A stretch of DNA of 12,487 nucleotides from a virus, in UHGV virus genome UHGV-0355038; one strand, given 5' to 3'. Positions within the stretch are counted from its first letter, which is position 1. Each line of letters begins with the position of its first letter. The notes below the pieces were generated by a model that was not told where the DNA came from, made no database searches, and saw only the letters and a program-made list of their open reading frames with translations. The position numbers and the translations under genes are program-made. This document shows positions 1 to 12,487 of the stretch, in pieces.

Positions 1-106
1 CATAGCCAAAGGTGCCTGTGTATTTTTTTGAGTTTCAATTATTGCATTTCTCACCAGCGGTGGTAGTGCATATATCGGATAAGGATTTTCTGGTGCAAGT
101 AAGCAC
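1..106 (-). CDS. small hypothetical protein, N-terminal part only (runs off window start); paralog of the 357..584 ORF
   Basis: Minus-strand translation from the ATG at 106..104 gives MCLLAPENPYPIYALPPLVRNAIIETQKNTQAPLAM..., open to the window edge. A GAGAGG Shine-Dalgarno-like motif lies about 5 nt upstream. It shares the pattern PYP.YA.P...NAIIETQ.N..A.LAM with the 75-aa ORF at 357..584. Not in the ORF track because it is partial. Confidence 0.35.
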
Positions 107-143
107 ATAAAAGCCTCTCTTTTCATTAATGGGTTAGTAAAGT

Positions 144-179
144 AGCAGCAACTCCCGCTATAATAGCGAAATAGCTGCT
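144..179. promoter_or_regulatory. palindromic operator-like site upstream of the first small-gene copy
   Basis: AGCAGC (144..149) and GCTGCT (174..179) flank a central palindrome CGCTATAATAGCG that contains a TATAAT -10-like hexamer. It is the counterpart of the better-preserved site at 620..656. Confidence 0.3.
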
Positions 180-356
180 GTTCAGACCTAATGTTCTGAG
201 AAATACAGAATATCTGTAGATCTGATGTTTAATAAACCGATAAGGTTAATTCAGTTCATACTGTGTTATTTACCACGAAATATCATTCATGTTTCTCATT
301 CTTAACACCTCCTAAAATTATTTCACTAACACCTTCCCCCCGGTCTTTTTCCTTTC

Positions 357-584
357 TCAGGAATCAGCCAGAACCATAGTGTAAATATTAACGGGCCCAC
401 GTAAATTTCCGGGGTTGCACACGTCAATCTGATTCTGACAGGCAATTGACATCGCTGTTAATAATGATGTTGTAGTCATAGCCAGAGATGCTTTTTCATT
501 GTGTTGAGTTTCAATTATTGCATTTCCAGTCATTGATGGTTGCGCATATACTGGATACGGAGTATCCGGTTTGATGTAAGACAT
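357..584 (-). CDS. small hypothetical protein (75 aa), tandem paralog of the partial ORF at 1..106
   Basis: ATG start with an AAGGA Shine-Dalgarno motif about 8 nt upstream (minus-strand sense ...AAAAAAGGAAATATTTATG). The N-terminus MSYIKPDTPYPVYAQPSMTGNAIIETQHNEKASLAM aligns with the copy at 1..106. A palindromic operator-like site lies about 36 bp upstream. Confidence 0.45.
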   Translation of the reverse strand: MSYIKPDTPYPVYAQPSMTGNAIIETQHNEKASLAMTTTSLLTAMSIACQNQIDVCNPGNLRGPVNIYTMVLADS

Positions 585-619
585 AAATATTTCCTTTTTT
601 CGTAATAACTTTCGGTTAT

Positions 620-656
620 AGCAGCTATTTCCGCTACAATAGCAACAATAGCTGCT
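620..656. promoter_or_regulatory. perfect 10-bp inverted repeat operator-like site (AGCAGCTATT / AATAGCTGCT), 17-bp spacer
   Basis: AGCAGCTATT at 620..629 and AATAGCTGCT at 647..656 are exact reverse complements. The spacer TCCGCTACAATAGCAAC holds a TACAAT -10-like hexamer. The site sits between the small ORF start (584) and the AlpA-like gene end (690). Confidence 0.4.
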
Positions 657-689
657 ATACAGACTGGATATACTGAAAATACAGACAGT

Positions 690-917
690 TCATCTGGTCT
701 GTATCCAGCAGAGAAGGTCACTTAACAACCATCCGCAAGATTTCTTTCCGATAGACTTACGTGGTGGAAATGTTCCCTCCCGTTCAAGTTTCCACGCTTG
801 TGTACGAGAAATTGACGTGATCTCATATCGTTCCTTTTCACGTACCAGTCTGTCGCATTCAATCCCATAAGCTTTCAAAATGACCAGACGCTGTTCATCT
901 GTTAATGGAAGCCACAT
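690..917 (-). CDS. AlpA-family (phage Vis/AlpA-like) helix-turn-helix transcriptional regulator
   Basis: The track ORF 690..938 begins with a TTG codon. An internal ATG at 917..915 is preceded by a perfect AGGAGG Shine-Dalgarno motif at 5-nt spacing, so I place the start there (75 aa, MWLPLTDEQ...). The C-terminal segment ITSISRTQAWKLEREGTFPPRKSIGKKSCGWLLSDLLCWIQ matches, from memory, the AlpA pattern (S.STiyR...G.FP..+.+G.+s.gW...ei..Wi). Confidence 0.6.
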   Translation of the reverse strand: MWLPLTDEQRLVILKAYGIECDRLVREKERYEITSISRTQAWKLEREGTFPPRKSIGKKSCGWLLSDLLCWIQTR

Positions 918-1608
918 ACTACCCTCCTGATATATCAATACTTTTTATTTCCGGCATGAGCATGAAATGACTAAGTTTCCCGGATAAACAATGAGTGAAA
1001 GTCACTATCATTCATCCAGCCAACACCTTACAAATAAAATGTAATACTATGATTTTTATAGGTCAAAATACTGAATTGAAATGTTAAAATGGCTTTTAAT
1101 AGAAAAAATAAAGACATATAGAACCAAATAAAAACAAGCCGCGACCAATAAAAACAAAAATTAATATTAAAAATCCATTATGACGATTTTTGTTGACTAA
1201 AATTAGGTTGGGATATATAAATAAATCCATGTGAAATTCAAACAAAGCATGGAGGAGTCGCAGGAAGGTGAAATATTTCCATCTAATTTGTGATAATCAT
1301 CACAAAAATAAGCTACAACAAGCGGAGGAAAAGACAATCTGTTGCTGAACAGACAGAAGCAGGCTACGAATGATCGGAAAATGAAGCAAATACGCTTATA
1401 CAGAAGACGCAGGGGTAACTGACGGAGACAATCACAATCAGGAGAAAATGATCGTAAATAATGTATAAAATCTCAGGATATAAACAAATGTACACAAGCT
1501 ATCCACGTAATCTGCGGCTGGCTCAGGATTAACGTTTCATTTCAGTGGACGACATCGATTCTGTCTGACAGTGGGCCAATATGTGGCAAGCAGAAAACTT
1601 CTGACATC

Positions 1609-3240
1609 ATGGTAACTCGGACAATGCAACAAAAGTATGATCGTGTTTTATCTGGCGAATCCCACCCATTCCCTGGCATATACGAGGCGGTTTCCGAACA
1701 ACTCCTTTTGCTCATCTTTAAGGCTCGTCAGCTATATCAGAATCCAGAATATCGCCCCTGGTTTGAAGAACAGCACAGAGTTCTCTCTGCATTACGTGCT
1801 AATACAGAGCTCTTGAGAATATTTAGAGAACAAAGAAACGCGGAAGAACCAGAGCTTATTATTAAAGAATCTACATTACCCCTACTCACTAATTCTAATC
1901 TTACAGATGCGCTTAATATTATGTGCCATTTATACAATGGTTTTGATGAAGGAAATATCAGTCTGAAAACCTGGGGGGCGATGCAAGAGGTACAGACAAC
2001 ATCAACCTTTATCAGCCCGGGACCGAGAACCTGGAAAACACCTGAACTGGCAAAGTTTGTAGGAGATGATTTATTTAATATTCTGACTGAATGTAAAGCC
2101 TGGAGTTCACCAATTCCAGCAGAAACCCGACAGGGCTATTGCCATCAGGATCTGTCTGTTGCACACTCCTGCACCTCAGAGTTACTGGCACACCTGAATC
2201 AATACCATGAAATTGATGAATCAGCAATACTTGCCAGAGTTATTGGTATGACGGTTAACGGATTCTACAAGAAAAATAATACAGACCTCCCAGAATGGCT
2301 ATCCCCCTTTAAAGAGGAACATAAAATATTCAGAGATTGTCTGGAGCAAAAGACCGAGGATGTAATCAGACTGAAAGAACAACTGTTGAAAACAGGACGT
2401 TCAGAATTCGTGAATAATTTGTGTCGGGTCGCCAACTGGTATGAAATTAAGTCAATATACGATGAATATGTCCGTCTTTATGCCAATGAAATCATTGGTT
2501 GGTTCAACAAAACCATGGAATATTTTAAACCAACAGATTTTATCCGATATACATGGAAATTCGCAACAGTTACTCCAGATAAAGAGACAGAAACCAAGCA
2601 TACAACTGCATGGGAAAAGGATTATTGCCAGATAACTATACAACGTGATGAACTTCTGAGATTGATTCACACGAATACCCTTCAGGATGCAGTAATTTAT
2701 CTTTGCCATTGCCTGCAGAAGAAATACAAGAAATCATCCCAAAATGAGATAGAGTTTCCAGGAATAAAACCTCCGGCATCAGAGAGTGAAATTAATATAA
2801 CAGATAATTTTGAATTTTATTCTCTCCTGGAGCTCAGTAAAGATAATGAGAGGCGGCTGGAAACATTTCAAAAATGGTATGAAAAAAATAAAGTTTTGTT
2901 AGAAAGTCATAAACAAAAACGAACAGAGAAGATTGACGTTGCCGTACGACTTGTAGGGCTGAAAGCCTATGATCTGCATGAAGGGATTCCGGATAGTCCA
3001 AAACGAAAAGTTAAAGATGGCATAAATGAAGACATCAAAGCCGATACCAGTTTACGCCTGCCAAAGACAAATATAAGTGATACGTCGCTAAACCGTTATC
3101 GCCGCACTGTTAAGGAGATTATCAATAACGAAATCGACGCATTCCTGTTGGAACAGAAGAAAAAAAATAAAAGATTTCCCTACAGTGAAGATAGAGATGT
3201 GATTCGACCTTTATGGGGAAAATGCCTGACCGGGCAGTAG
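1609..3240 (+). CDS. hypothetical protein, 543 aa, no family recognised
   Basis: Long uninterrupted ORF; antisense ORFs inside it are short. A terminator-like hairpin follows the stop. No Walker A, HExxH or other motif I can name with confidence. The start is ambiguous between ATG 1609 and ATG 1624 (no strong Shine-Dalgarno for either). Confidence 0.65.
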   Translation: MVTRTMQQKYDRVLSGESHPFPGIYEAVSEQLLLLIFKARQLYQNPEYRPWFEEQHRVLSALRANTELLRIFREQRNAEEPELIIKESTLPLLTNSNLTDALNIMCHLYNGFDEGNISLKTWGAMQEVQTTSTFISPGPRTWKTPELAKFVGDDLFNILTECKAWSSPIPAETRQGYCHQDLSVAHSCTSELLAHLNQYHEIDESAILARVIGMTVNGFYKKNNTDLPEWLSPFKEEHKIFRDCLEQKTEDVIRLKEQLLKTGRSEFVNNLCRVANWYEIKSIYDEYVRLYANEIIGWFNKTMEYFKPTDFIRYTWKFATVTPDKETETKHTTAWEKDYCQITIQRDELLRLIHTNTLQDAVIYLCHCLQKKYKKSSQNEIEFPGIKPPASESEINITDNFEFYSLLELSKDNERRLETFQKWYEKNKVLLESHKQKRTEKIDVAVRLVGLKAYDLHEGIPDSPKRKVKDGINEDIKADTSLRLPKTNISDTSLNRYRRTVKEIINNEIDAFLLEQKKKNKRFPYSEDRDVIRPLWGKCLTGQ

Positions 3241-3248
3241 ATCACTGA

Positions 3249-3280
3249 GGGGATAACAGCCCGGTTATCCCCTGTTTGTT
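3249..3280 (+). terminator. intrinsic terminator-like hairpin between convergent genes
   Basis: GGGGATAAC (3249..3257), loop AGCCCG, GTTATCCCC (3264..3272): a perfect 9-bp stem. It is followed by TGTTTGTT and starts 9 nt after the stop of the 1609..3240 ORF. Confidence 0.5.
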
Positions 3281-3326
3281 CTGCTTCAGGTTGCCAGAGC
3301 TCCAGGAACACGAGGCAATCGGCAAA

Positions 3327-3923
3327 TTATGCGGCTTTTCCATTAACAGATTCGGCCACAAGAACAACACCGTGTTTGTTTCGATCAGGATGTTCACTCC
3401 AGATTTCTGATTCAGGAATGCTTTCCCCATCATAGCAGATCCGATCACCATCAAACGGATAATACCGTGCGGAATCTGTAGCTAAGATAAACACCTTAAG
3501 ATTCGTTGAACGACGCGCTATATGCTGCCAGAGGGCTTTACCTCCTTCATATTGCTCGTTATCACTTAATAGTATAACGCCTGCTTTTGTGGCTATTGTT
3601 TCATAAACAAACGTAGCAAGGCTAACATCACGTACAGCACCATCGACAACAATCCCTTCAATCTGAGCAACGTCCTGTTCTTCCCAGAATTTCCGGACAA
3701 ACACCCCTTCAAGTCGGGGACGACGCTGAAGCTCCAGAGTGGCAACAACCTTATGGCGAATATCACCATCAATAACAGAAGGTGCAGCTTCGATTACCGC
3801 AGCGAACGGAGTCTTTGGATCCCAGATGATCTGGTAAAGCACACCCTGAATAGTTACTCCATCCAGTATCGAAAAACGACGAGCTACAGTAGCAGGGGAG
3901 TAAGACATTGGAATGACAGCCAT
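3327..3923 (-). CDS. hypothetical protein, 198 aa, no family recognised
   Basis: ATG-initiated ORF on the minus strand, convergent with 1609..3240. The composition looks like a real globular protein (e.g. ...IATKAGVILLSDNEQYEGGKALWQHIARRS...). I could not assign a fold by eye. Confidence 0.6.
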   Translation of the reverse strand: MAVIPMSYSPATVARRFSILDGVTIQGVLYQIIWDPKTPFAAVIEAAPSVIDGDIRHKVVATLELQRRPRLEGVFVRKFWEEQDVAQIEGIVVDGAVRDVSLATFVYETIATKAGVILLSDNEQYEGGKALWQHIARRSTNLKVFILATDSARYYPFDGDRICYDGESIPESEIWSEHPDRNKHGVVLVAESVNGKAA

Positions 3924-4233
3924 TTTATGGCCTAAAATTTGAAAACATCAGTATCAATACTGACCTCATCAGTCTGAGCATATATTGATAAAGTTTTTAT
4001 GTTTACACTCAATAAATACCTTACCAAACAACTAATAGCGATGTCTACATTGCCATTCGACATGCTTACAATTTTTGTCAACAAGAAAGTGAATTTATAT
4101 CAACGGTAAGAAGTAAACACGAGGACACCAAAACCAAATGTACACACTTTTGTGCTTTGTGTCCCCTGTGTGTACCCAAATGACAAACTGCAAGAAAATC
4201 TAGGCACACACTTATCTAACTTATTGATTTAAA

Positions 4234-4279
4234 TGGTGCCGATAATAGGAGTCGAACCTACGACCTTCGCATTACGAAT
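4234..4279 (-). repeat. 46-nt 3' fragment of a tRNA gene (most likely tRNA-Thr CGU, thrW-like): integration-site (att) repeat
   Basis: Minus-strand sense reads ATTCGTAATGCGAAGGTCGTAGGTTCGACTCCTATTATCGGCACCA: anticodon loop with CGT, variable loop, T-arm GTAGG-TTCGACT-CCTAT, acceptor 3' strand TATCGGC, discriminator A and CCA. The sequence 5' of it (GGATTCTTATA) does not continue a D-arm or acceptor 5' strand, so this is a partial copy and not a gene. Confidence 0.65.
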
Positions 4280-5026
4280 TATAAGAATCCGCTTCTAATT
4301 CAAAGTATTACCCCATCAACACTGTGCTCACACGTCCCACCACATCAAAACATGTAAAGCCTTGCAAGCCATTGTGAGGCCTTATGTGTCTCAGTTTTGT
4401 CCCACCTTGTATTATGACTTGCATAGCCAATGAAGATAAACGTGACGACAAACAGCGCAGCAGTCTTCTTTTCTTTCACACTTTCCCCAATCAGCATACA
4501 TACTTTCTACCATAACTGTAGTGAATGTCTGTTATGAGCGAGCAAAAGAGATTCAATTACCGGGGAATTACTCCGACATAAGCTCTCCCAGAAACACCGG
4601 AACAGCGATTCGCATATTCTCTTCTATACTTTCAGTCTGACCGGCTGGAGATTTCATAGCAAGAAAATGGATGAGCCAAGACCTATGCGGGAAAGAGGCT
4701 GAGGAAATAATTGCCGATAGCACTGTGCCCGACGAAAAGTTAATCTGGCACGCAATGACGCGCGTCCTTGGGGCATCAGGAATCAGAGAGCCAACTTAAC
4801 AACCCATTATATATTATTTAACCGGACTGTTACATGTACAAAGTTCAATGATTAGTGATTCTGTGACGCCACATACAACCTAAGCCCCTGATATAAAACC
4901 AGTCTATGCAACACCTAAAAATCATATATGATAGGGTGATAAGTCAACGCGCAGTATAAAAATTAAGCTAAAAAATGCTTTCAGCATAGTGAATCTATTT
5001 CACACTACATAATTAAGGATGAAAAA

Positions 5027-5872
5027 ATGACTGCACCAGTAATTAGTTTTATCAATATGAAAGGTGGGGTTGGTAAAACAACTTTATGCGTTGGGATTGC
5101 TGAGTTTTTAGCCAACCATATGGGGCGCAAGGTTCTAGTTATCGATATTGATCCTCAATTTAATGCCACTCAGTCCTTAATGGGGCATTATGATCGAGTA
5201 GAAGAATATATGACTGCCCTTCGCCCTAATAATCAAACCATTCGAAAGATTTTTGAGCTTCCAAATTCATTAATGGAAGATGAAAAGAAAGTGACACCAG
5301 AACAGGTCATTACTAAAGTTTCAGACAATCTTGATATTATCTTAGGTGATATAAACATTATCTTTGATACTAACCAAGAGGGTATTAGAATAAAAATGTT
5401 GCGTAAATTCATCACCGAAAATGACTTAAAAGAAAGTTACGACTATATCTTTATCGATAGCCCCCCAACAATCTCATTATTTACAGATACCGCACTCCTT
5501 GCTTCTGATTATTATCTTACTCCGGTTAAAATTGATCACTACTCGGTGCTTGGAGCAAGCAGTTTAAATAGCGTTATAAGAAATATGCGCACACATCATG
5601 AGAAAGAAATCAAGCAAGTCGGTTACATTTATACAAACACTGATGCTGAAATGACCAATAAAACAAGGGAAATTAAAGAACAATTCGAAAACCATACTCA
5701 ATTTACAAATTTTTATTTCTTTGAAAATCAATTAACCTACGTGCGTGATTTAATGGTAGGTTATCAAGGAAATATTCCTTCTTGTTATTCAAAGTCACGC
5801 CAAGATATAGAAAAGATCTGTAACGAATTTATTAACAGAGTGGCTCACTTGGAAGGTAACACAAATGAATAA
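5027..5872 (+). CDS. ParA/MinD/Soj-family P-loop ATPase (deviant Walker A)
   Basis: AAGGA Shine-Dalgarno motif 7 nt upstream of the ATG. N-terminal INMKGGVGKTT (deviant Walker A KGGxxGK[ST]), VIDIDPQ (typical ParA DxDPQ motif) and a hydrophobic Walker B-like IFIDSPP. 281 aa, no N-terminal HTH extension. Confidence 0.75.
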   Translation: MTAPVISFINMKGGVGKTTLCVGIAEFLANHMGRKVLVIDIDPQFNATQSLMGHYDRVEEYMTALRPNNQTIRKIFELPNSLMEDEKKVTPEQVITKVSDNLDIILGDINIIFDTNQEGIRIKMLRKFITENDLKESYDYIFIDSPPTISLFTDTALLASDYYLTPVKIDHYSVLGASSLNSVIRNMRTHHEKEIKQVGYIYTNTDAEMTNKTREIKEQFENHTQFTNFYFFENQLTYVRDLMVGYQGNIPSCYSKSRQDIEKICNEFINRVAHLEGNTNE

Positions 5873-6263
5873 ACAATTAATTAAAGCGCTCAATAAAGCT
5901 AATAATATGCCCATGACCAAAGAAAACTTCTTAGGCTTGGTAATTATGTTGATTCTTTCAAAAGAGGTTTTTAGATCAAATTTTGATGTTAGTAAATTTA
6001 TTAACAAAACCTTCAAAATATCTTTTTTGAATTATGCTGTACGGTCAAGAACTTTGATGTGCGCTAAAATTTGCAGACATATTAATGAATTAAGTGAGAA
6101 TGACATAAAGATGGCTTATACGCATTTCTTAAACAACATTAACACATTAGACATTATTTTTAATGATGCAAATAAAACAAGCCAAAAACCCACATCTAAA
6201 AGCAAGCATGCTATAAGGAATTTAAATATTTGGATTAATGCAAATAAAAAGGAAGAAGAATAA
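5865..6263 (+). CDS. hypothetical protein, 132 aa, Lys/Asn-rich, no family recognised
   Basis: ATG overlaps the upstream stop by 8 nt (ATGAATAA). A GGAAGG Shine-Dalgarno motif lies about 8 nt upstream. Very AT-rich codon usage shared with its neighbours. Confidence 0.6.
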   Translation: MNKQLIKALNKANNMPMTKENFLGLVIMLILSKEVFRSNFDVSKFINKTFKISFLNYAVRSRTLMCAKICRHINELSENDIKMAYTHFLNNINTLDIIFNDANKTSQKPTSKSKHAIRNLNIWINANKKEEE

Positions 6264-6928
6264 TGCTCACGCAGGATCCCTTCAACATTGGAAGAGATGT
6301 AAATTATTTTAGAGCGGAGGTGCAAAAGCACCTCAGAACCACTGATGAAATAAACAAATCAGTATCAATATTTAGGCAAATAAGTCTTTGTAATACAATT
6401 TTAAGTCACAATCCTAATCTAAATCACTCTTCTTATATAAAAGGTTTTATATATGATACCTTAAACTCCTTAATTGCCATTATAAAAAAAAGAGAACGGT
6501 ATCTCCAACTGAACTTCCGCTCAATGGTGGAGCATGTGGCCAGAATAAGCCTCAATAAGAACTACAATGGTGGGGATTTTGACCAAACTGTACGTCGTAG
6601 AGACTTTGACTTCTTAAAAGCCCAACAAGTCGATGAAGGCTGGTCTTATTTACATAATGTCTATATCAACGCCTGTTATTATGTTCACTCCTCCCCCCAA
6701 GCGAACCTAAATGTTACATCAACATTTATATCACTTATGGAGGGAGATTGTAATTCAACACAGCATAAAATGGTGAAAAAACTTCATGAGGTAGTATCGG
6801 CGCTGATGAGAATCATTATAAAGTATTATCATCAGCATATCTCAAACATTTTCTTTAGAAACAAAAAGGATTTAGAGAAAATAATGGGAAAAAGCCTTTA
6901 TTCATATTATACCAGCTTAGACAATTAA
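6263..6928 (+). CDS. hypothetical protein, 221 aa, no family recognised (speculative HEPN-like R-x4-H motifs)
   Basis: Start overlaps the upstream stop by 1 nt (TAATG). An AAGGAAG Shine-Dalgarno motif is upstream. It contains R-x4-6-H strings (RSMVEH, RIIIKYYH) that could be coincidental. Confidence 0.6.
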   Translation: MLTQDPFNIGRDVNYFRAEVQKHLRTTDEINKSVSIFRQISLCNTILSHNPNLNHSSYIKGFIYDTLNSLIAIIKKRERYLQLNFRSMVEHVARISLNKNYNGGDFDQTVRRRDFDFLKAQQVDEGWSYLHNVYINACYYVHSSPQANLNVTSTFISLMEGDCNSTQHKMVKKLHEVVSALMRIIIKYYHQHISNIFFRNKKDLEKIMGKSLYSYYTSLDN

Positions 6929-6965
6929 TTCTCTCATATTCATTGCGTAGAGCATAAATATCTAT

Positions 6966-7461
6966 CTAACCACCTAAAATGCCAGAAAATCTAGTTGTAT
7001 ACCGGTGCGAAAATATCTCGCGTTTCATCTGCCACTGCTGCTGAATGCCCTGCCCAGCGAAACAGAGTGTTTCCTTCCCGTCTTTTGCATTGAGGTGCTC
7101 CAGCACGCTCATTAACTTTTCGCTCCCAGGACCCAGCGCGTTATCGTCGAATAGGTTAGGGCATGCTCTGACTGAAGAAGTCCCCCAGCATTACCCCGGC
7201 TTTCTGATATCGGTGTCCGTCTTTCCATATTGCATCCAGACTCCCCGTTGCTACTGCAATGATATCCCGACTGTCCTGTGTCGGGATGAGCAGCTTCACC
7301 GACGCGCTGTTACAGTAGTACGACTCGTTCAACGCAAAGGGTATCGTGTAAAACCGATGATGACACTGCCGGCAATCAGCACTGACGTCAGCAAACGTGA
7401 GAAAGAACAGATAAGCCGAACGATTTAGGAAATGTTTGAAGAGACTGATATGTGGATGGTT
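6966..7461 (-). pseudogene. umuC: umuC-like Y-family translesion polymerase gene, 3' remnant, frameshifted and 5'-truncated
   Basis: Minus-strand translation gives ...FYTIPFALNESYYCNSASVKLLIPTQDSRDIIAVATGSLDAIWKDGHRYQKAGVMLGDFFSQ. After a frameshift near 7160..7175 it gives NLFDDNALGPGSEKLMSVLEHLNAKDGKETLCFAGQGIQQQWQMKREIFSHRYTTRFSGILGG-stop. This matches my recollection of the UmuC C-terminus (...HRYQKAGVMLGDFFSQ...NLFDDNA...GQGIQQQWQMKR...PRYTTR...). No intact ORF remains, and the upstream extent (possibly to about 7790) is uncertain. Confidence 0.6.
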
Positions 7462-7858
7462 TCAGTTTAAACGCCTTGAACCGTCATATTACCTAAGTAC
7501 AATCCGCTGTGACTGGCAATCATTCAATACTTGCACTATCAAAAGTGCATCAGCCAACCGCAGCACGTCTTGCATACGACCTGTCTGCGGTTTCAATCAC
7601 CTCTCACCACCAGTCCCATCAATAATAATTAAACAGCGCCTAAACAAAATAAATAACAACAAGTCAACAACCTCGACAGGATGCCGATGGGATGATGAAG
7701 AGATAAGAAAGAATAACTAGTAAAGCCCTAAAACGTCAGCGTTCAGACGCGTTTTTTACTTAACCGGTAACAAATACGTTGTATCATAGCAACATAAAAT
7801 GATTGTTCTAAATCAGATTAACTCCTCACTTTTGTACAATGTCGCTTACAGGTATACC

Positions 7859-9748
7859 ATGAAATCCGAGACGCTAACTGTCCAACAACTTTTTCAAGAC
7901 CGCCGACAATACTGTGTTCCATTCTATCAACGTGCCTATGTATGGACTCAGCGAAACCAATGGTCAGCTCTACTGGAGGATATCCTAGAGAAAGCACAAT
8001 CCCGGCTCTCGGGTACAAAACCAACTCCCCATTTCCTTGGTGCAGTGGTACTGGAACCTCAACCAAAAAAAGGATTATTCGGTGTAGATTCCATACATAT
8101 TATTGATGGTCAGCAACGATTGACCACTCTTCAATATGTTCTGGCATCCATCCGATTAGCATTACGTGCGACAGATCTTTCCAACTTAGAGCCTCTCATT
8201 TCGTCTTGCCTGAAAAACTCAAACGAAGACACAATGCGAAATAAAGAAGTAGAGCGCTTCAAACTGTGGCCAACTTTTCGGGATCAAACTCATTTTATTC
8301 AAAGTTTTAATGTTGAAAATATTGACGATATCCGGAATGTATTCTCTGATAGTTTCACGCAGCATGGTACGTTGCGTAAGCATTTTAATCACCCGCCATC
8401 ACTAGAAGCATTATGTTTTTTTACTGAAGCCTTTATAAAGTGGATTAAAATAGAAAATCACTCACCACGAGAAAATGCTGTAGCATTAATTGAGGCTGTC
8501 TTGACGGATCTGAAACTAGTAAGCATATTTCTCGAGGCTGAAGATGACGCTCAAATAATTTTTGAAACATTAAATGGCAGAGGTGCGGAACTTCATGCCA
8601 CAGATCTTATTCGCAATTATATTTTTATGTGCGCTGAACATGAAAATATTAATGCTGTTGAATTATATGAGAATGAGTGGAAGATCTTTGAAGATACGTA
8701 CTGGTCAGAAAGACAACGTCGTGGTCGTATTAATAAACCACGCATGGAGTGGCTAGTGCATGCAACATTGCAATCAGAAAGGCAACGTGAAATCGATCTG
8801 TCTCGTCTTTACAATGAGTATCGTGATTATGTAAGTAAGGACTTGCCTTCACAACGAGCAGATCTGCAAGTAAAGCGCCTCAAACAATATGCATCACAAT
8901 ATAAAGAATTGGTTGGTGGTTTTGGCACAACCCCCATCTCACACTTTGGACATCGCATCGCAGCCTATGATGTGACGACACTTTATCCGCTTGCTTTGTT
9001 CATTTCGATAGCTAACATCGCCGATGATGAGAAAGCAGCCATGTATAATGATCTTGTCTCCTACGTAGTACGAAGAGCCGTATGTGGCCTGACGCCAAAG
9101 AATTACAACAATGTATTTATGAATGTATTGCGGCACTTGTCTAAAACAGAAATTTCCAGTGTTGAGTTACGTAATATCCTCAATAGCTTAAATGGCGAAG
9201 CCTCACGTTGGCCTGGGGACTCAGAATTTCTCAACGCTTGCATCAATGCTCCACTTTATCCTGGCAGGCTCGACGCACCGAAAATGCGCTCAATGTTAAC
9301 GGAACTTGAAAGAGAACTTTGTCGCCAAGTGAAGACAGAGAAGCCTGATGTTCCAAATCTTTCTAACCTCGATATCGATCATCTTATGCCTCAAAGTTGG
9401 TATTCCTGTTGGCCTCTCGAAAATGGTCATATAGTGACAAATTCAGATGCTACGGTATTGAACCAAATTGTTCTGTCTGGAACCGATCTTACCCCAGAAC
9501 AGCTACTGGTAAGGAAACGGCAACAAGCGATAGCTACGTTGGGAAATCTAACTTTGCTTAACCTTAGCGTAAACCGTTCTGTTCAGAATGCTGTATTTCT
9601 GAAAAAACGTGATGCTCTCATCGTCCACACCAATCTACGACTGAACATTCCACTTATAGTTAAGGATAAATGGGATGAGGATGAAATCCTGGAGCGGGGT
9701 AAAAAGTTGGGGGAAATTGCATTGAAAGTATGGCCAAAACACGATTAA
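7859..9748 (+). CDS. GmrSD-family putative type IV (modification-dependent) restriction endonuclease: N-terminal DUF262 (ParB-like NTPase) plus C-terminal DUF1524 (His-Me finger nuclease)
   Basis: N-terminal YCVPFYQRAYVW and IIDGQQRLTTLQ (the DGQQR signature of DUF262). C-terminal LSNLDIDHLMPQSW (DUF1524-like D-H..P.S nuclease motif). The track ORF starts at ATG 7799; I prefer the in-frame ATG at 7859 (AGG 9 nt upstream; the conserved block then starts near residue 18), but 7799 is possible. Confidence 0.75.
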   Translation: MKSETLTVQQLFQDRRQYCVPFYQRAYVWTQRNQWSALLEDILEKAQSRLSGTKPTPHFLGAVVLEPQPKKGLFGVDSIHIIDGQQRLTTLQYVLASIRLALRATDLSNLEPLISSCLKNSNEDTMRNKEVERFKLWPTFRDQTHFIQSFNVENIDDIRNVFSDSFTQHGTLRKHFNHPPSLEALCFFTEAFIKWIKIENHSPRENAVALIEAVLTDLKLVSIFLEAEDDAQIIFETLNGRGAELHATDLIRNYIFMCAEHENINAVELYENEWKIFEDTYWSERQRRGRINKPRMEWLVHATLQSERQREIDLSRLYNEYRDYVSKDLPSQRADLQVKRLKQYASQYKELVGGFGTTPISHFGHRIAAYDVTTLYPLALFISIANIADDEKAAMYNDLVSYVVRRAVCGLTPKNYNNVFMNVLRHLSKTEISSVELRNILNSLNGEASRWPGDSEFLNACINAPLYPGRLDAPKMRSMLTELERELCRQVKTEKPDVPNLSNLDIDHLMPQSWYSCWPLENGHIVTNSDATVLNQIVLSGTDLTPEQLLVRKRQQAIATLGNLTLLNLSVNRSVQNAVFLKKRDALIVHTNLRLNIPLIVKDKWDEDEILERGKKLGEIALKVWPKHD

Positions 9749-9770
9749 TGCAATTAATAAAATGATTATA

Positions 9771-9794
9771 GCGGCCTTACATTAGTAAGGCCGC
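9771..9794. terminator. perfect 10-bp stem hairpin downstream of the GmrSD-like gene
   Basis: GCGGCCTTAC-ATTA-GTAAGGCCGC. The T-run is weak on the plus strand; on the minus strand it is followed by TATAATCATTTTATT. It may terminate either or both convergent transcripts. Confidence 0.4.
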
Positions 9795-9839
9795 TACTCA
9801 CTATTAAATCCTTTAATTTGCAACAAGAACAGCAGTGTC

Positions 9840-9971
9840 AGCCCTAGGTTTCGGACTTTGTACCGCTTATCTTGTCTTCAAAATCAGCTCGCATCCTGCA
9901 CAGTTCAGCGCATTACGTTGTAGATCTGTGTTCTGGTCATTTGTTGATACGCGAACATAGCCAATAAGCAT
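9840..9971 (-). pseudogene. pin: Gin/Pin/Cin/Hin-family serine DNA invertase, N-terminal stub only
   Basis: Minus-strand ATG at 9971..9969 translates MLIGYVRVSTNDQNTDLQRNALNCAGCELI, the near-invariant invertase N-terminus containing the catalytic-serine region (VRVST). A 1-nt loss in a T-run then shifts the frame (LKTR-stop); the +1 frame still reads FEDKISGTKSE before a TAG. Homology ends around 9830 where the GmrSD cassette begins. Not in the ORF track (too short). Confidence 0.7.
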
Positions 9972-10000
9972 GATAGCTCCTCCTGACAAAAACAGGAACG

Positions 10001-10474
10001 ATGCCATTTGCGCGCTATTTCTGCATTTTCATAAACGTTCAATTGGGAGAAGCGGCAAAACGGGATGTCGGAACCGGTAATAATCAACTCCCGGACATGT
10101 CCGCATTTGGTATGTCGCGAAACGGACAAACTGCCTGGGATATTCTCCCAAATGGTATGATTCGACAGGTTGGTACTGTGACACTGACGCCTGTTGGTAA
10201 TTTCAACGCAATTACTCTTGGTGGAGTGCTGTACTACACCCATTACTACAGGGTTAATTTCCCCAGACAATTCCCAAATGCACAAATAGCAACGCTGGCA
10301 ACACTAGCGAGTTACAGCTTTTCGACCCAGTCATCAATGGCTGGGAAATCACTGGCAACGCATCGCGATACTGATTCTGGCACTGACGTATCAAGAACGC
10401 GATTCACTGTGTCGTATACGACACCCAATCTCGGCGAAATTCCGACTTTGCATTTTGAAGCAATAGGATACTAA
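10001..10474 (+). CDS. alternative tail-fibre C-terminal (receptor-binding tip) cassette, S'-like, inverted relative to the expressed fibre gene
   Basis: 157-aa ORF; the frame is open from 9977. Its beginning ...INVQLGEAAKRDVGTGNN... parallels ...NALQLGTAATRDVGADNA... inside the minus-strand fibre gene, and both end in A(I/L)GY. The cassette has no obvious promoter or Shine-Dalgarno motif of its own. Confidence 0.55.
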   Translation: MPFARYFCIFINVQLGEAAKRDVGTGNNQLPDMSAFGMSRNGQTAWDILPNGMIRQVGTVTLTPVGNFNAITLGGVLYYTHYYRVNFPRQFPNAQIATLATLASYSFSTQSSMAGKSLATHRDTDSGTDVSRTRFTVSYTTPNLGEIPTLHFEAIGY

Positions 10475-10476
10475 AT

Positions 10477-10710
10477 ATGGAGAATATGTATTTCAGCCCA
10501 ACGACCGTTGGTTTTTATGTTTCTGAACAAGAGCGACCTGATGATGCGGTTGAAGTCTCGCCAGAGGTGGAGGCATTTTTGAGGGAGTGTGTTATCTGGG
10601 GAGCGGATACATTTAACGTAGAGCGAGATGCAGCAACGGTGACATATCCAACAGAACTGCTTGAATATGTCACCACCTACAACGCCCCCGTTAAATATCC
10701 TGCGGATTGA
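10477..10710 (+). CDS. small ORF downstream of the S' cassette, U'-like (alternative tail fibre assembly chaperone), possibly truncated
   Basis: ATG 2 nt after the S' stop (TAA-at-ATG), the same spacing as the fibre/Tfa junction on the other strand (TAA-ga-ATG). It is 77 aa, and its 3' end overlaps the 3' end of the minus-strand Tfa gene by 20 bp. The assignment is by position; I see no family motif. Confidence 0.4.
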   Translation: MENMYFSPTTVGFYVSEQERPDDAVEVSPEVEAFLRECVIWGADTFNVERDAATVTYPTELLEYVTTYNAPVKYPAD

Positions 10711-11101
10711 CAGGCCATACGGGTTTTGCTGTATCAACGCGCATCAGCAAGACCCGGTATTTTTTCCATTCAGATAACGCGGCGGTTTCTTCTGCCGTCG
10801 CGATTTCCGCATCAAAAGCATCCTGTCTCCAGGCTATTTCCTTATCAGCCATAGAACGCAATACCGTTCTTTTCTGTTCAGCCTGAATAATCTGTTGTTC
10901 AGCGGAGAGTGGCGGGATATCAATCCACGCAGGATTACCATTTTTATCAGCCCCCAGCGTTTTGCCTTGTGGCGCTACGCCTGTGTAAATTGCCATTGTT
11001 TCATCATCAACATCAACGCCATTTTCAGGCCATGAACCGGCGCTGATATATACCTCTTTTAGTGCTTTCGGATAGAAAGAGCCTTTATAAAATTTATTCA
11101 T
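10691..11101 (-). CDS. tfa: tail fibre assembly protein (lambda Tfa / Mu U family)
   Basis: C-terminal ...[27 protein letters not shown]... matches, from memory, the conserved lambda Tfa C-terminus (...[25 protein letters not shown]..WP). I place the start at the ATG at 11101, which is 2 nt after the fibre stop with GGGG upstream; the track ORF from 11131 would overlap the fibre gene. Confidence 0.75.
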   Translation of the reverse strand: [136 protein letters not shown]

Positions 11102-11103
11102 TC

Positions 11104-12487
11104 TTAATACCCCAGCGCGATAAAACAACAATCTTCGGTGCCCTCTCCGGATGGCGACCAGTTCTGAATACTGATATGCGTTCTGCTGGCAATACGCACA
11201 TTCATCGCGGCATTGTAGCCAGATGTTCCACGGTTTCCGGTCGCAAATAAGCCTGCATAGGGAAAAGCAAATGGTAAGGCATATCCAGCATCAGCTCCCT
11301 TTTGTGTTGCCACCATTCCCCACTGCAACATAAGTTTCACCGGGTTTCCTGTCGTCGCAATGCATGGAATGTAGATGTAGCCATTCCCTGACATCATTGA
11401 CCTGAAGCTGTCTAAACCCAGTAACTTCGAGGCATTATCTGCTCCAACATCTCGTGTTGCGGCGGTCCCTAACTGGAGCGCATTTCGGAAGGCTGATACA
11501 TCAGAAATATCAGCTCCATTAGCCGATTTCTGCATAGCTCCGGAGGCTTTATTTATCGTTTCGCCCAAACCAAGGTATGCGAGAAGACCAGCTACATCCT
11601 TTCCACTCAAATTAGTCAGCGTATTGTCCAGCGGTTGTTTGCCCGCCAGTGCGCTCTGTACTTCGCTTTTGCTGTAGGCATCCAGATCTTTAGGCGTAAG
11701 CGTAATATCCTTCGTGCCGTCAAACGGAACGCCGTTGATATTCCGTGCAGTCTGTAGTTTTGTGGCAGTTGCAGCATTACCAGTGGTGTTCTGATTACCC
11801 GTAGTGTTTACACCTGGAAGGTTAATATTTGCAGAACCGTCGAAAACAACTCCACCGATAGATCTTGCCGTCTGCAATTTCGTGGCTGTACTTGCATTAC
11901 CATTCAATGAACCAGTTAATCCACCTGTAACAGACAACGGACCTGAAACTGTTCCTCCGGTTGTTGGCAGTGCTCCAATATCTAACGGCGTCGGTTTCTG
12001 ATGTGTGCTATACATCGTATAAACAACACCATAGGTAACGCTGGAAGGCTTACTCGCTGAATATGTTGGCGAGGTATAAACAGAAACTGACGCATTTGCA
12101 GTACAATCCCAATGGATATTTACACTCGTCGCATAATTGCCAATCTCAACGTAAATATCATATGTATCGCCGGATGTGTTGATCCAGGCGAAATTCGTTA
12201 ATCCGACGGCTGTACGCTTCCACAAAGCCCCGGTAATTCCTTTGGGGTTTCCATTGCCTGCTCGTAGAACCAGTTCTGAAATGCCTGCCTGATGTGGGGA
12301 ACCGACGTTGTAACCAGCGCCACCAATCAATGCGATGTAAACGATGGAACTCGCCTGTGGCATGGTTACCGTTGCTAATTTGAACCAACCAGCACCACCG
12401 CTGAATGACATTGTTGTTGAGTTAAGCGTACCAATATCTTTCGGCGTCAGTGTTATATCCGCTGAAAGCGCCTTACCATTCACCTTA
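11104..12487 (-). CDS. stf: side tail fibre protein, C-terminal about 460 aa (5' end beyond the window)
   Basis: Repeated fibre motifs (DITLTPKD twice; ATKLQTARSIGGVVFDGSANI / ATKLQTARNINGVPFDGTKDI), Gly/Ser/Thr-rich composition, and an immediately downstream Tfa. The track methionine at 12483 is probably internal. Confidence 0.8.
   Translation of the reverse strand, partial: KVNGKALSADITLTPKDIGTLNSTTMSFSGGAGWFKLATVTMPQASSIVYIALIGGAGYNVGSPHQAGISELVLRAGNGNPKGITGALWKRTAVGLTNFAWINTSGDTYDIYVEIGNYATSVNIHWDCTANASVSVYTSPTYSASKPSSVTYGVVYTMYSTHQKPTPLDIGALPTTGGTVSGPLSVTGGLTGSLNGNASTATKLQTARSIGGVVFDGSANINLPGVNTTGNQNTTGNAATATKLQTARNINGVPFDGTKDITLTPKDLDAYSKSEVQSALAGKQPLDNTLTNLSGKDVAGLLAYLGLGETINKASGAMQKSANGADISDVSAFRNALQLGTAATRDVGADNASKLLGLDSFRSMMSGNGYIYIPCIATTGNPVKLMLQWGMVATQKGADAGYALPFAFPYAGLFATGNRGTSGYNAAMNVRIASRTHISIQNWSPSGEGTEDCCFIALGY

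Follow-up and report, generated by a model that had tools for sequence, protein, structure and literature searches.

The window analysed in this study, a stretch of 12,487 nucleotides from the virus genome UHGV-0355038, carries a gene that, judged by its sequence, is an allele of GmrSD, a single-chain type IV (modification-dependent) restriction endonuclease of E. coli prophages. The gene lies on a cassette of 2.2 kb, and alignments indicate that this cassette replaced only an internal part of the serine invertase gene pin, pieces of which flank it on both sides. We consider it very probable that this account holds as a whole: a functional GmrSD allele on a pin-interrupting cassette, one junction spread by recombination, and two later, independent events in the neighbouring prophage end. 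The coordinates of the features are compiled in Table 1.

Table 1. Features of the prophage end, the cassette and the adjoining tail-fibre switch (positions of the window).
Feature	Position	Strand	Evidence
att core, 63 bp, duplicating the 3' end of tRNA-Thr (thrW); prophage boundary	4217-4279		
SRAP (SOS-response-associated peptidase) remnant, C-terminal part only	4659-4799	+	tblastn with UTAK-5 SRAP, residues 172-209, 60% identity
Three-gene cargo operon: ParA-like ATPase (281 aa), 132-aa and 221-aa proteins	5027-6928	+	
umuC 3' remnant, little-finger and DUF4113 regions	6966-7347	-	Pfam IMS_C and DUF4113; PGAP pseudogene
dinI 3' remnant, N-terminus deleted	7344-7470	+	tblastn with DinI, residues 30-78, 69% identity
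pin 3' end: stop codon (complement 7593-7595), up to about 8-11 coding nt, structured 3' flank	7513-7603	-	aligned to intact-pinE loci
GmrSD cassette, about 2.2 kb	about 7604-9826	+ (antisense to pin)	absent from both intact-pin references; pin sequence on each side
Sigma-70 promoter-like site: TTAACC, 16-nt spacer, TATCAT	7760-7787	+	consensus scan, 9 of 12 matches
GC-rich 13-bp hairpin 3' of gmrSD	9768-9797		scored as terminator on the minus strand; kept in four of four contexts
pin 5' stub (serine invertase), ATG at 9971	9827-9971	-	Pfam Resolvase, 2.5e-05; tblastn with PinE, residues 1-34, 88% identity
pin-proximal crossover site TTCTCCCAATTGAACGTTTATGAAAA	10026-10051	-	differs at 3 positions from the conserved pin-upstream sequence of the other loci
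Invertible tail-fibre segment, about 1.54 kb: alternative fibre C-termini and tail-fibre assembly genes	10038-11576		
Second crossover site of the tail-fibre switch	11558-11583		

The gmrSD gene and its product

The gmrSD coding sequence (7859-9748, plus strand) is an intact open reading frame of 629 amino acids. The longest frame over the gene (7799-9748) specifies 649 residues; the start at 7859 is the one that agrees with the PGAP annotation and with the characterised 629-aa enzymes. A plus-strand DUF262/DUF1524 gene had been predicted here from the sequence letters, and the profile searches bore this out with matches to Pfam GmrSD_N (PF03235, 7.8e-34, residues 28-276 of the 649-aa frame) and GmrSD_C (PF07510, 5.1e-20). 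The PADLOC model mREase_IV matches the protein over its full length with 1436 bits, and the PADLOC models for SspE give weak matches (31 to 57 bits) to the N-terminal domain. No NCBIfam model matches the protein, and a phmmer search of PDB sequences returned only 9jfl_B, a DUF262 protein (E = 1.6e-07), without reaching BrxU. The N-terminal DUF262 domain (ParB/Srx-like) carries the near-invariant motif DGQQR at residue 83 of the 629-aa protein, and D507, H508 and N522 are kept in the C-terminal DUF1524 domain, a His-Me finger nuclease.

The UT, Eco94 and CT596 GmrSD sequences used for comparison are those of Fig. S1 of PMC4437046. All three align with the window protein over 629 residues without gaps and belong with it to the same 90% cluster, so that what had been called a GmrSD-like type IV enzyme is an allele of GmrSD itself. 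UT GmrSD (UTI89_C2960, EcoUTI89GmrSD) is 96.2% identical, with 24 substitutions, and Eco94GmrSD (ECSTEC94C_1402) and CT596 GmrS/GmrD, which share DGQQR and D507/H508/N522, are both 94.0% identical. Each of the latter two is separated from the window protein by 38 substitutions, of which the N-terminal 150 residues hold 24; the other 479 residues account for the remaining 14 differences from Eco94. The window allele is a mosaic, UT-like in the N-terminal 150 residues and closer to Eco94 in residues 301-470. A tblastn search of deposited phage genomes found no close GmrSD homologue (best match, 24% identity), and in a megablast search of such genomes with the whole window the matches were confined to pieces of tail-fibre, invertase and att sequence. 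Integrated prophages are therefore the only known source of the allele.

In the published model, the DUF262 domain with its DGQQR motif would bind and use NTP, and the DUF1524 His-Me/HNH domain (D507-H508-N522) would cut DNA containing 5-hydroxymethylcytosine or glucosyl-hmC. A prophage carrying the enzyme would thereby exclude T-even-type phages unless a matching inhibitor such as T4 IPI* is injected. Eco94GmrSD cleaves glc-5hmC and 5hmC DNA in an NTP-stimulated manner, restricts T4 delta-ip1 more than 10^6-fold, and loses its activity upon alanine substitution at the positions of D507, H508 and N522 (PMC4437046). Defence against phages with modified DNA, which the original prediction had called plausible, is thus already established experimentally for GmrSD (PMC4437046). 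The CT/Eco94 and UT alleles are not alike in their phage range or in how sensitive they are to T4 IPI*. Activity of the window allele, and the phages that it may exclude, are inferred.

An allele that is decaying or functionally shifted, being inactive or directed at 5mC (as BrxU) or another sugar-hmC, is unlikely. Such a state would be in line with the properties of the 96.2% identical UT GmrSD, as the purified protein had no detectable activity in vitro and the strain UTI89 restricts neither T4 nor IPI-deficient T4, although it does restrict some other T-even phages (PMC4437046). The concentration of allelic divergence in the N-terminal 150 residues and the many pseudogenes of the neighbouring prophage end point in the same direction. 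However, the reading frame is intact with every motif retained, and the exact protein occurs on at least 481 contigs. Moreover, pairwise dN/dS values of 0.12-0.20 between the gmrSD alleles, also across domains, indicate purifying selection.

The cassette within pin

The cassette contains the promoter-like site, gmrSD and a terminator hairpin. Its junctions were read against two independent references with intact pin, UTAK-5 (L007) and TUM1880 (L011), which gave the same picture. On the right side, the predicted minus-strand stub of the invertase N-terminus is present and retains roughly the first 124-147 nt of pin: identity to pin is clear over about 124 nt (to 9849) and continues in degraded form to 9827, and PGAP annotates the stub as 9850-9971. 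Only residues 1 to about 41 are kept, the complete catalytic domain and the C-terminal helix-turn-helix of the invertase (about 184 aa) are absent, and in the window lineage one further nucleotide is deleted from the A-run at 9881-9884; the stub is a pseudogene and specifies no functional invertase. On the left side, the pin 3' end aligns just 3' of intact pinE in UTAK-5 (L007 13673-13822) and in TUM1880 (L011 5001-5091), where it overlaps the last 11 nt of pinE. Truncation of the invertase by the cassette, as originally predicted, is thereby evident from both flanks, and the internal pin DNA lost amounts to about 400-420 nt relative to the intact pinE of L007, L008 and L011.

The pin 3'-flank element of about 90 nt recurs in 5394 of 5426 E. 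coli genomes, with a folding energy of -42.7 kcal/mol (z = -4.7) for the minus strand. An Rfam search of the whole window at E <= 0.1 assigned no family to the structured element at 7505-7610; sub-gathering matches within the window to IS009 (inside a tail-fibre assembly gene), to an archaeal snoRNA model and to a lncRNA model were treated as chance or uninformative.

The right breakpoint in pin is identical in four aligned contexts, non-pin bases included, and its position is uncertain by about 25 nt because similarity to pin decays gradually from 9849 to 9827. The left boundary differs in the e14-like context, where the shared sequence begins at window position 7648, so that at least one secondary event is needed. 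Transposon-like ends of the cassette were considered and rejected, as searches for direct and inverted repeats over 7300-12487 found none flanking it, only short matches at chance level.

The promoter-like site is the putative promoter of gmrSD; this stretch is largely kept in the upstream alignment of the four contexts, and a small hairpin with a T-run precedes it at 7731-7757. In the consensus scan, the number of sigma-70-like sites in the region was not above chance. The expression signals of gmrSD are consensus matches only.

Distribution and exchange

Among complete E. coli genomes, 288 contain the contiguous junction between GmrSD and pin. The prophages concerned are integrated at thrW, ssrA, icd and proL, and thus at no fewer than four sites, among which the cassette DNA is 90-100% identical. 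The cassette accompanies both lambdoid siphovirus-type and Mu/SfV-like myovirus-type tail modules. In about 1230 other genomes, which have an intact pinE, homology between pinE and the window begins at window positions 9838-9849; pin was truncated in all nine inspected loci, and one further locus keeps only a scar. Homology between contexts does not stop at the cassette ends: it continues into the 5' end of pin, crossover site included, and into the pin 3'-flank element, a pattern that fits exchange by homologous recombination.

Were the cassette an active mobile unit with site-specific targeting of pin, acquired separately by each prophage, this could also account for its presence at thrW, ssrA, icd and proL beside both types of tail module. 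We regard such repeated insertion as highly improbable, given that the open reading frames of the cassette include no recombinase or transposase gene, that terminal inverted or direct repeats are lacking, and that the junction, non-pin bases included, is the same in all aligned contexts. The homology outside the cassette, too, is of the kind expected for homologous recombination. A self-contained cassette would rather have replaced about 400 nt inside the pin gene of a tail-fibre switch once, and the single ancestral junction would later have spread among unrelated prophages by recombination, a route that we infer from the alignments.

Between the prophage end and the tail-fibre switch lies a hotspot for defence genes and other cargo. 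In UTI89, GmrSD is accompanied there by PD-T4-3 (453 bits) and a DpnII-like REase, and in S3 by a type ISP R-M enzyme. The occupants are McrA in K-12, HipA_2 and DUF3037 (matching PDC-M66A/B) in UTAK-5 and, in the place of GmrSD, a 445-aa unknown protein in GPT24-02. The turnover of defence genes that had been proposed for this prophage end is visible among its relatives.

Two further events at the prophage end

That the gene lies at the end of a prophage agrees with the prediction and is marked by the att core, a 100% identical copy of which overlaps tRNA-Thr at the integrase-bearing end of the same prophage locus in strain BS74R-D (L003 28126-28188). Window positions 4217-4404 share 97% identity with the int/attP region of the phages SfV and SfII. 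The prophage end around gmrSD is full of pseudogenes. The SRAP remnant was also found by blastn to L007 9827-9961, and PGAP lists it as a pseudogene in L003. Between the convergent 3' ends of the SRAP and umuC remnants sits the ParA operon, with a GC content of 29-35%; its first gene matches Pfam AAA_31 (7.9e-38), and genes 2 and 3 belong to no Pfam, NCBIfam or PADLOC family. The same three-gene set is conserved in mobile elements of Dickeya, Brenneria and Salmonella. Arrival of the umuC remnant together with this operon was rejected, because the SRAP, umuC and dinI remnants keep the order and orientation of UTAK-5 and the operon stands in place of just about 40 nt of the reference (L007 9961-10001).

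A umuC remnant had been predicted at 6966-7461 as the direct left flank of the cassette. The C-terminal remnant on the minus strand is indeed there, but it ends at about 7342-7347. It covers residues 285-419 of the 422 of UmuC in two frames (tblastn), with a frameshift near 7157-7162, shares 82% DNA identity with the intact umuC of UTAK-5 and is without the palm/finger catalytic core; no partner umuD is present. Beyond it, on the plus strand, lies what is left of the 3' end of dinI, annotated by PGAP as 'DinI family protein, missing N-terminus', with an in-frame TAG at 7426-7428 and 81.5% DNA identity to L007 11855-12000. Since dinI is followed by the pin stop codon and 3' flank, it is pin and not umuC that borders the cassette. 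The junction of the umuC and dinI remnants at 7342/7344 has at most 2 nt of microhomology and is confined to 55 genomes, with >= 99% identity in 52. It is a separate deletion of about 1.5 kb that removed the 5' part of umuC, umuD and the 5' part of dinI.

In UTAK-5 the order is SRAP, umuC, umuD, dinI, cargo, intact pinE and tail-fibre switch, and by this comparison the umuC and pin remnants of the window belong to one ancestral backbone. This much of the original prediction stands in the alignment with UTAK-5, which keeps pin and umuDC intact, but the two junctions have separate origins. A single insertion-deletion, with the cassette taking the place of all sequence between the remaining ends of pin and umuC (the 3' part of pin, the intervening genes and the 5' part of umuC), would explain why both remnants share a strand and keep the order of the UTAK-5 backbone, with gmrSD as the sole intact gene between them. 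It is nevertheless scarcely credible, as it is already contradicted by the sequences at 7344-7603, where the dinI remnant survives together with the stop codon and 3' flank of pin in ancestral order, and by the unequal distribution of the junctions, with GmrSD/pin in 288 genomes at >= four att sites and umuC/dinI in only 55. Moreover, no umuC remnant is annotated next to the cassette in UTI89, S3, MS1679, EM22-18-53 or GPEC1189. Apart from the cassette, the window lineage has undergone two further independent events, the 1.5-kb deletion between umuC and dinI and the insertion of the ParA operon between the SRAP and umuC remnants.

The tail-fibre switch

The inversion end-point of the tail-fibre segment maps at 10038/10039. 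In WCHEC025985 the segment has the opposite orientation (99.87% identity), the flank 4217-10039 is 100% identical to the window and pin is equally truncated. The segment still inverts, presumably by invertases acting in trans, as the inversion between identical flanks suggests.

Discussion

The closest known counterpart is UTI89, which shares with the window the cassette, the truncated pin stub, the adjoining invertible tail-fibre segment and an upstream dinI(-like) pseudogene or remnant. The two copies differ in their prophages: that of UTI89 is a myovirus-type prophage integrated at ssrA, with PD-T4-3 and the DpnII-like REase as left neighbours, whereas the window copy belongs to a thrW-integrated prophage with a lambdoid tail and has the umuC and dinI remnants and the ParA operon on its left. 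Eco94GmrSD is located on an SfII-like prophage directly after the tail-fibre genes (PMC4437046), and the CT596 GmrS/GmrD genes were reported to adjoin tail-fibre-assembly-like and invertase-like ORFs.

Like the window, e14 of K-12 has a type IV restriction gene between the invertase of a tail-fibre switch and the prophage end. The predicted likeness to pin-mcrA of e14 turns out to be literal in MS1679, where an e14-like prophage at icd carries the GmrSD block exactly at the K-12 mcrA position. Its allele is 99.7% identical to Eco94GmrSD and has the same pin junction as the window. In K-12, pinE is intact with mcrA downstream, whereas the cassette removed most of pin in the window and in MS1679, in the latter 433 nt of pin plus mcrA. 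Apart from an HNH-type nuclease, McrA and GmrSD are unrelated in domain make-up. BrxU and SspE share the DUF262/DUF1524 two-domain architecture with the window GmrSD at distant sequence. The gene for BrxU lies on a plasmid next to BREX, and the enzyme has 5mC as a further target; SspE requires the sensing of phosphorothioates (PMC12707154). The gmrSD gene of the window stands alone.

It is possible, though we put it forward only tentatively, that GmrSD and the truncated pin form a recombination-mobilised defence module that rides on the DNA of the tail-fibre switch and is swapped between unrelated prophages. The right arm of such a module would be the pin 5' end with the crossover site, and the left arm the structured pin-3' element of about 90 nt. 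The proposed reach of these arms covers four att sites and a scar at a fifth, with siphovirus- and myovirus-type tails. If this reading is true, the prophage would pay for its defence gene with a host-range switch that relies on invertases from other prophages in trans.

The observation is real, yet both the enzyme and its location were already known, and it adds no new biology. The enzyme, its mechanism, its role against T-even phages and its site by tail-fibre and invertase genes on SfII-like prophages are published (He et al. 2015, PMC4437046; Bair and Black 2007, cited in PMC4619093). Added here are a nucleotide-level map that places the cassette inside pin, one junction that about 290 complete E. 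coli genomes share across several att sites, and the distinction of the umuC/dinI scar, an unrelated later deletion, within a slot of cargo turnover. The region could be used as a clear illustration of how defence genes are exchanged at the ends of prophages, and a third natural GmrSD allele, a mosaic of UT and Eco94, could help to map the determinants of IPI* sensitivity.

Results

The open reading frame on the plus strand matched both domains of the DUF262/DUF1524 enzyme expected from the original prediction (Pfam GmrSD_N, 7.8e-34; GmrSD_C, 5.1e-20), and the PADLOC model mREase_IV was covered in its entirety with 1436 bits. The start at 7859 yields 629 aa, in agreement with PGAP and the characterised enzymes. 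Reference sequences of UT, Eco94 and CT596 GmrSD were taken from Fig. S1 of PMC4437046, in which He et al. report UTI89_C2960 (UT GmrSD) and the single-chain CT596 GmrSD. The GmrSD of the UTI89 locus is 100% identical to the published UT GmrSD, and the allele of MS1679, carried by an e14-like prophage at icd, shares 99.7% identity with Eco94GmrSD and CT596 GmrSD. The window protein aligns without gaps at 96.2% identity to UT GmrSD and 94.0% to Eco94GmrSD and CT596 GmrSD; it has DGQQR at residue 83 and keeps D507, H508 and N522, each of which abolishes activity when changed to alanine (PMC4437046). The gene is GmrSD itself, in an arrangement already known from CT596, Eco94 and UTI89.

The predicted invertase stub on the minus strand is real, with a Pfam Resolvase match and 88% identity to PinE residues 1-34. 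Overlooked before was that this pin gene, with its 5' end at 9971, survives at its other end too: window 7513-7603 holds its stop codon and 3' flank. As had been proposed, relatives with intact genes were compared. UTAK-5 served as intact-backbone reference, with the gene order SRAP (+), umuC (-), umuD (-), dinI (+), HipA-like kinase and DUF3037 (+), intact pinE (-) and invertible tail-fibre segment. In TUM1880, the second independent intact-pin reference, pinE is the final gene of a prophage adjoining bioA-ybhB; window 7513-7603 corresponds to 5001-5091 of its locus L011, including the final 11 nt of pinE, and window 9849-10077 to 5512-5741. Both strains agree on the cassette junctions, and their alignments therefore place the replacement of approximately 400-420 nt inside pin by about 2.2 kb (7604-9826), in which gmrSD runs antisense to pin.

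Positions of features in the window
Feature	Position	Strand	Remark
543-aa protein	1609-3240		no family
198-aa protein	3327-3923		matches PHROG 7522
att core	4217-4279		63-bp repeat of tRNA-Thr 3' end
SRAP 3' end	4666-4799		aligned to UTAK-5 (L007)
ParA-like ATPase (281 aa), 132-aa protein, 221-aa protein	5027-6928	+	starts overlap
umuC 3' end	6993-7347		aligned to UTAK-5 (L007)
dinI 3' end and downstream sequence	7344-7488		aligned to UTAK-5 (L007)
Spacer directly 3' of pinE, up to pin stop codon	7460-7603		aligned to UTAK-5 (L007)
Promoter-like site	7760-7787		within cassette
GC-rich hairpin	9768-9797		within cassette
pinE first 147 nt and upstream crossover site	9827-10052		aligned to UTAK-5 (L007)
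Tail-fibre switch crossover site	10026-10051
Tail-fibre switch crossover site	11558-11583

While a single replacement from the 3' part of pin to the 5' part of umuC had been postulated, junction mapping revealed three separate events. The umuC remnant (-) itself was correctly recognised (IMS_C and DUF4113; UmuC residues 285-419 of 422, split over two reading frames), but 7344-7470 is the 3' part of dinI (+) and not umuC. At the junction of these partial genes (7342/7344, microhomology of at most 2 nt), about 1.5 kb present in UTAK-5 is deleted, which takes out umuD together with the 5' parts of umuC and dinI. This deletion was found in 55 genomes only, with at least 99% identity in 52 of them, and in UTI89 and EM22-18-53 the cassette is preceded by a dinI-like pseudogene, with no umuC remnant annotated. 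The loss of the umuC 5' end is therefore not due to the GmrSD insertion.

The third separate event is the insertion of a ParA three-gene operon (+) of low GC content (29-35%) between the convergent 3' ends of the partial SRAP and umuC genes, replacing approximately 40 nt of the UTAK-5 sequence. Searches of Pfam, NCBIfam and PADLOC gave no family for its second and third genes, which matched only PHROGs of unknown function, and homologues of the third gene (221 aa) were found in Enterobacterales only. The three-gene set (further loci L013, L014/L015 and L016) occurs in islands beside integrases in Dickeya and Brenneria at 49-65% identity. A lambdoid prophage of Salmonella has it immediately 3' of the gene for the CI repressor, the place taken by rexAB in lambda. 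The operon is a candidate exclusion or defence cassette of an uncharacterised kind.

The window comes from an E. coli chromosome, and its sole full-length match is Ec-2977 (99.3% identity, two joined pieces), while 4217-12487 is shared by many strains. The part to the right of 4217 represents the distal end of a thrW-integrated prophage: in BS74R-D, a second copy of the 63-bp att repeat overlaps thrW beside the integrase, and 4217-4404 is 97% identical to the SfV/SfII int/attP region. To the right of att and the GmrSD region follow the invertible tail-fibre segment and, in the source strain, head and tail genes of lambda type. Positions 1-4216 belong to a different element, found left of the att core in one complete genome only (Ec-2977). 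It contains a DUF3987 fragment and an HTH regulator gene, with a YfjI-family gene just outside the left end of the window, and looks like a second island in tandem integration at thrW.

With pin truncated, the tail-fibre switch has lost its own invertase. Nevertheless, WCHEC025985 (L009 7319-8856) carries the 1.54-kb segment 10038-11576 reversed at 99.87% identity, next to a flank 100% identical to window 4217-10039 with the same truncated, frameshifted pin; in several other near-identical carriers, colinearity with the window ends exactly at the crossover site (10039). The pin truncation is old because it is common to alleles with approximately 8-10% DNA divergence, and the flip therefore came later. 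Pin, Gin, Cin and Hin cross-complement one another, and the simplest explanation of the flip would be a Pin-family invertase acting in trans. In the window, the pin-proximal crossover site has CCCAATTG as its segment-side half, a 3-nt change from the CCCAAACC conserved in the five other aligned loci. A sub-threshold match to Rfam IS009 at 10725-10901 (-; 37.5 bits, gathering score 117) lies inside a tail-fibre assembly gene and probably reflects homology among such genes rather than an RNA gene.

Discussion

The right breakpoint and the non-pin bases after it are identical in the window (thrW), UTI89 (ssrA), S3 (thrW) and MS1679 (icd), and the S3 prophage carries left-hand cargo unlike that of the window. 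At least 80% of a 390-nt junction probe was covered in 288 genomes; in approximately 1230 further genomes, homology begins at window 9838-9849, within intact pinE. The truncated pin was present in 9/9 inspected loci; beyond these four contexts they include EM22-18-53, with a prophage at proL, and GPEC1189, a further variant at thrW. These sequence comparisons point to one insertion event that then spread widely. For the cassette, no linked recombinase was detected, nor any inverted repeats at its ends or duplication of its target. Homology common to the contexts extends from 7513-7518 (7648 in the e14-like case) through 10052-10101, so that its left arm takes in the element flanking pin 3' and its right arm the pin 5' end together with the crossover site. 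The simplest account would be that the cassette spread through homologous recombination in these two conserved arms. Cassette DNA was found in 306 of 5426 complete E. coli genomes, chromosomal every time, and 50,697 deposited phage genomes contained no close GmrSD relative.

The element directly 3' of pin (7505-7610, core 7513-7593, approximately 80-90 nt) was detected in 5394 of the 5426 genomes with a median of three and a maximum of eight copies, nearly always without annotation. Its sites include the 3' side of pinE in TUM1880, the ecpE-ykgJ intergenic region and, in a K-12-like strain, the end of Qin with the partial ydfJ gene. Homology repeatedly breaks off at its left edge (7513). In the pin-sense orientation it is predicted to fold (-42.7 kcal/mol, z = -4.7), and Rfam gives no family. 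Possible roles are those of a terminator, a 3'-UTR module or a small RNA.

All GmrSD alleles fall into one 90% cluster (1185 members). The window protein is a mosaic, UT-like in residues 1-150 (142/150 identical to UT, 126/150 to Eco94) and nearer to Eco94 in residues 301-470. Pairwise dN/dS among four gmrSD alleles is 0.12-0.20, and dS of the window allele versus those of S3 and MS1679 is approximately 0.55-0.60 in the first 280 codons (7859-8700) and 0.07-0.11 in the rest (8700-9748), a roughly 7-fold ratio. This pattern indicates purifying selection plus intragenic recombination, in which the N-terminal domain appears to be shuffled among alleles, possibly linked to inhibitor or substrate specificity.

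In the GmrSD family, NTP is bound by the ParB/Srx-like DUF262 domain and DNA is cleaved by the DUF1524 His-Me finger; activity is stimulated by NTP or dNTP, with a preference for glc-5hmC or 5hmC DNA (PMC4437046, PMC4619093, PMC12707154). Eco94GmrSD restricts IPI-deficient T4 >10^6-fold and wild-type T4 only about 15-fold, because injected IPI* inhibits the enzyme, while UT GmrSD is IPI*-insensitive, restricts T2 and T6 but not T4, and was inactive in vitro after purification (PMC4437046). The functional guess in the original prediction was right, and judging from the family the window allele is presumably active and may act on phages of the T-even type; as it is a mosaic, its IPI* sensitivity is not predictable.

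The suggested analogy to the pin-mcrA arrangement of e14 turned out to be literal: in MS1679 compared with K-12 e14, the GmrSD block takes the place of K-12 pinE from nucleotide 123 onward, of the entire mcrA and of all further DNA as far as the att scar at the partial icd gene. Different cargo occupies the prophage end in UTI89 (PD-T4-3, 453 bits, and a DpnII-like REase), S3 (a type ISP R-M enzyme), UTAK-5 (HipA_2 and DUF3037, which match the PADLOC candidates PDC-M66A/B) and K-12 (McrA). The argW/intS prophage of GPT24-02 (L012 3643-5283) retains a cassette scar in which the pin stub and the hairpin are left with approximately 60 nt from the gmrSD 3' end, the record of a further round of turnover. 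The protein encoded in place of gmrSD (445 aa) belongs to no Pfam family, and its PADLOC matches, to Lit and PD-Lambda-2_B, are marginal (E about 6e-4 to 7e-4). The turnover of defence genes at the prophage end, as originally proposed, is a familiar theme and is well supported here.
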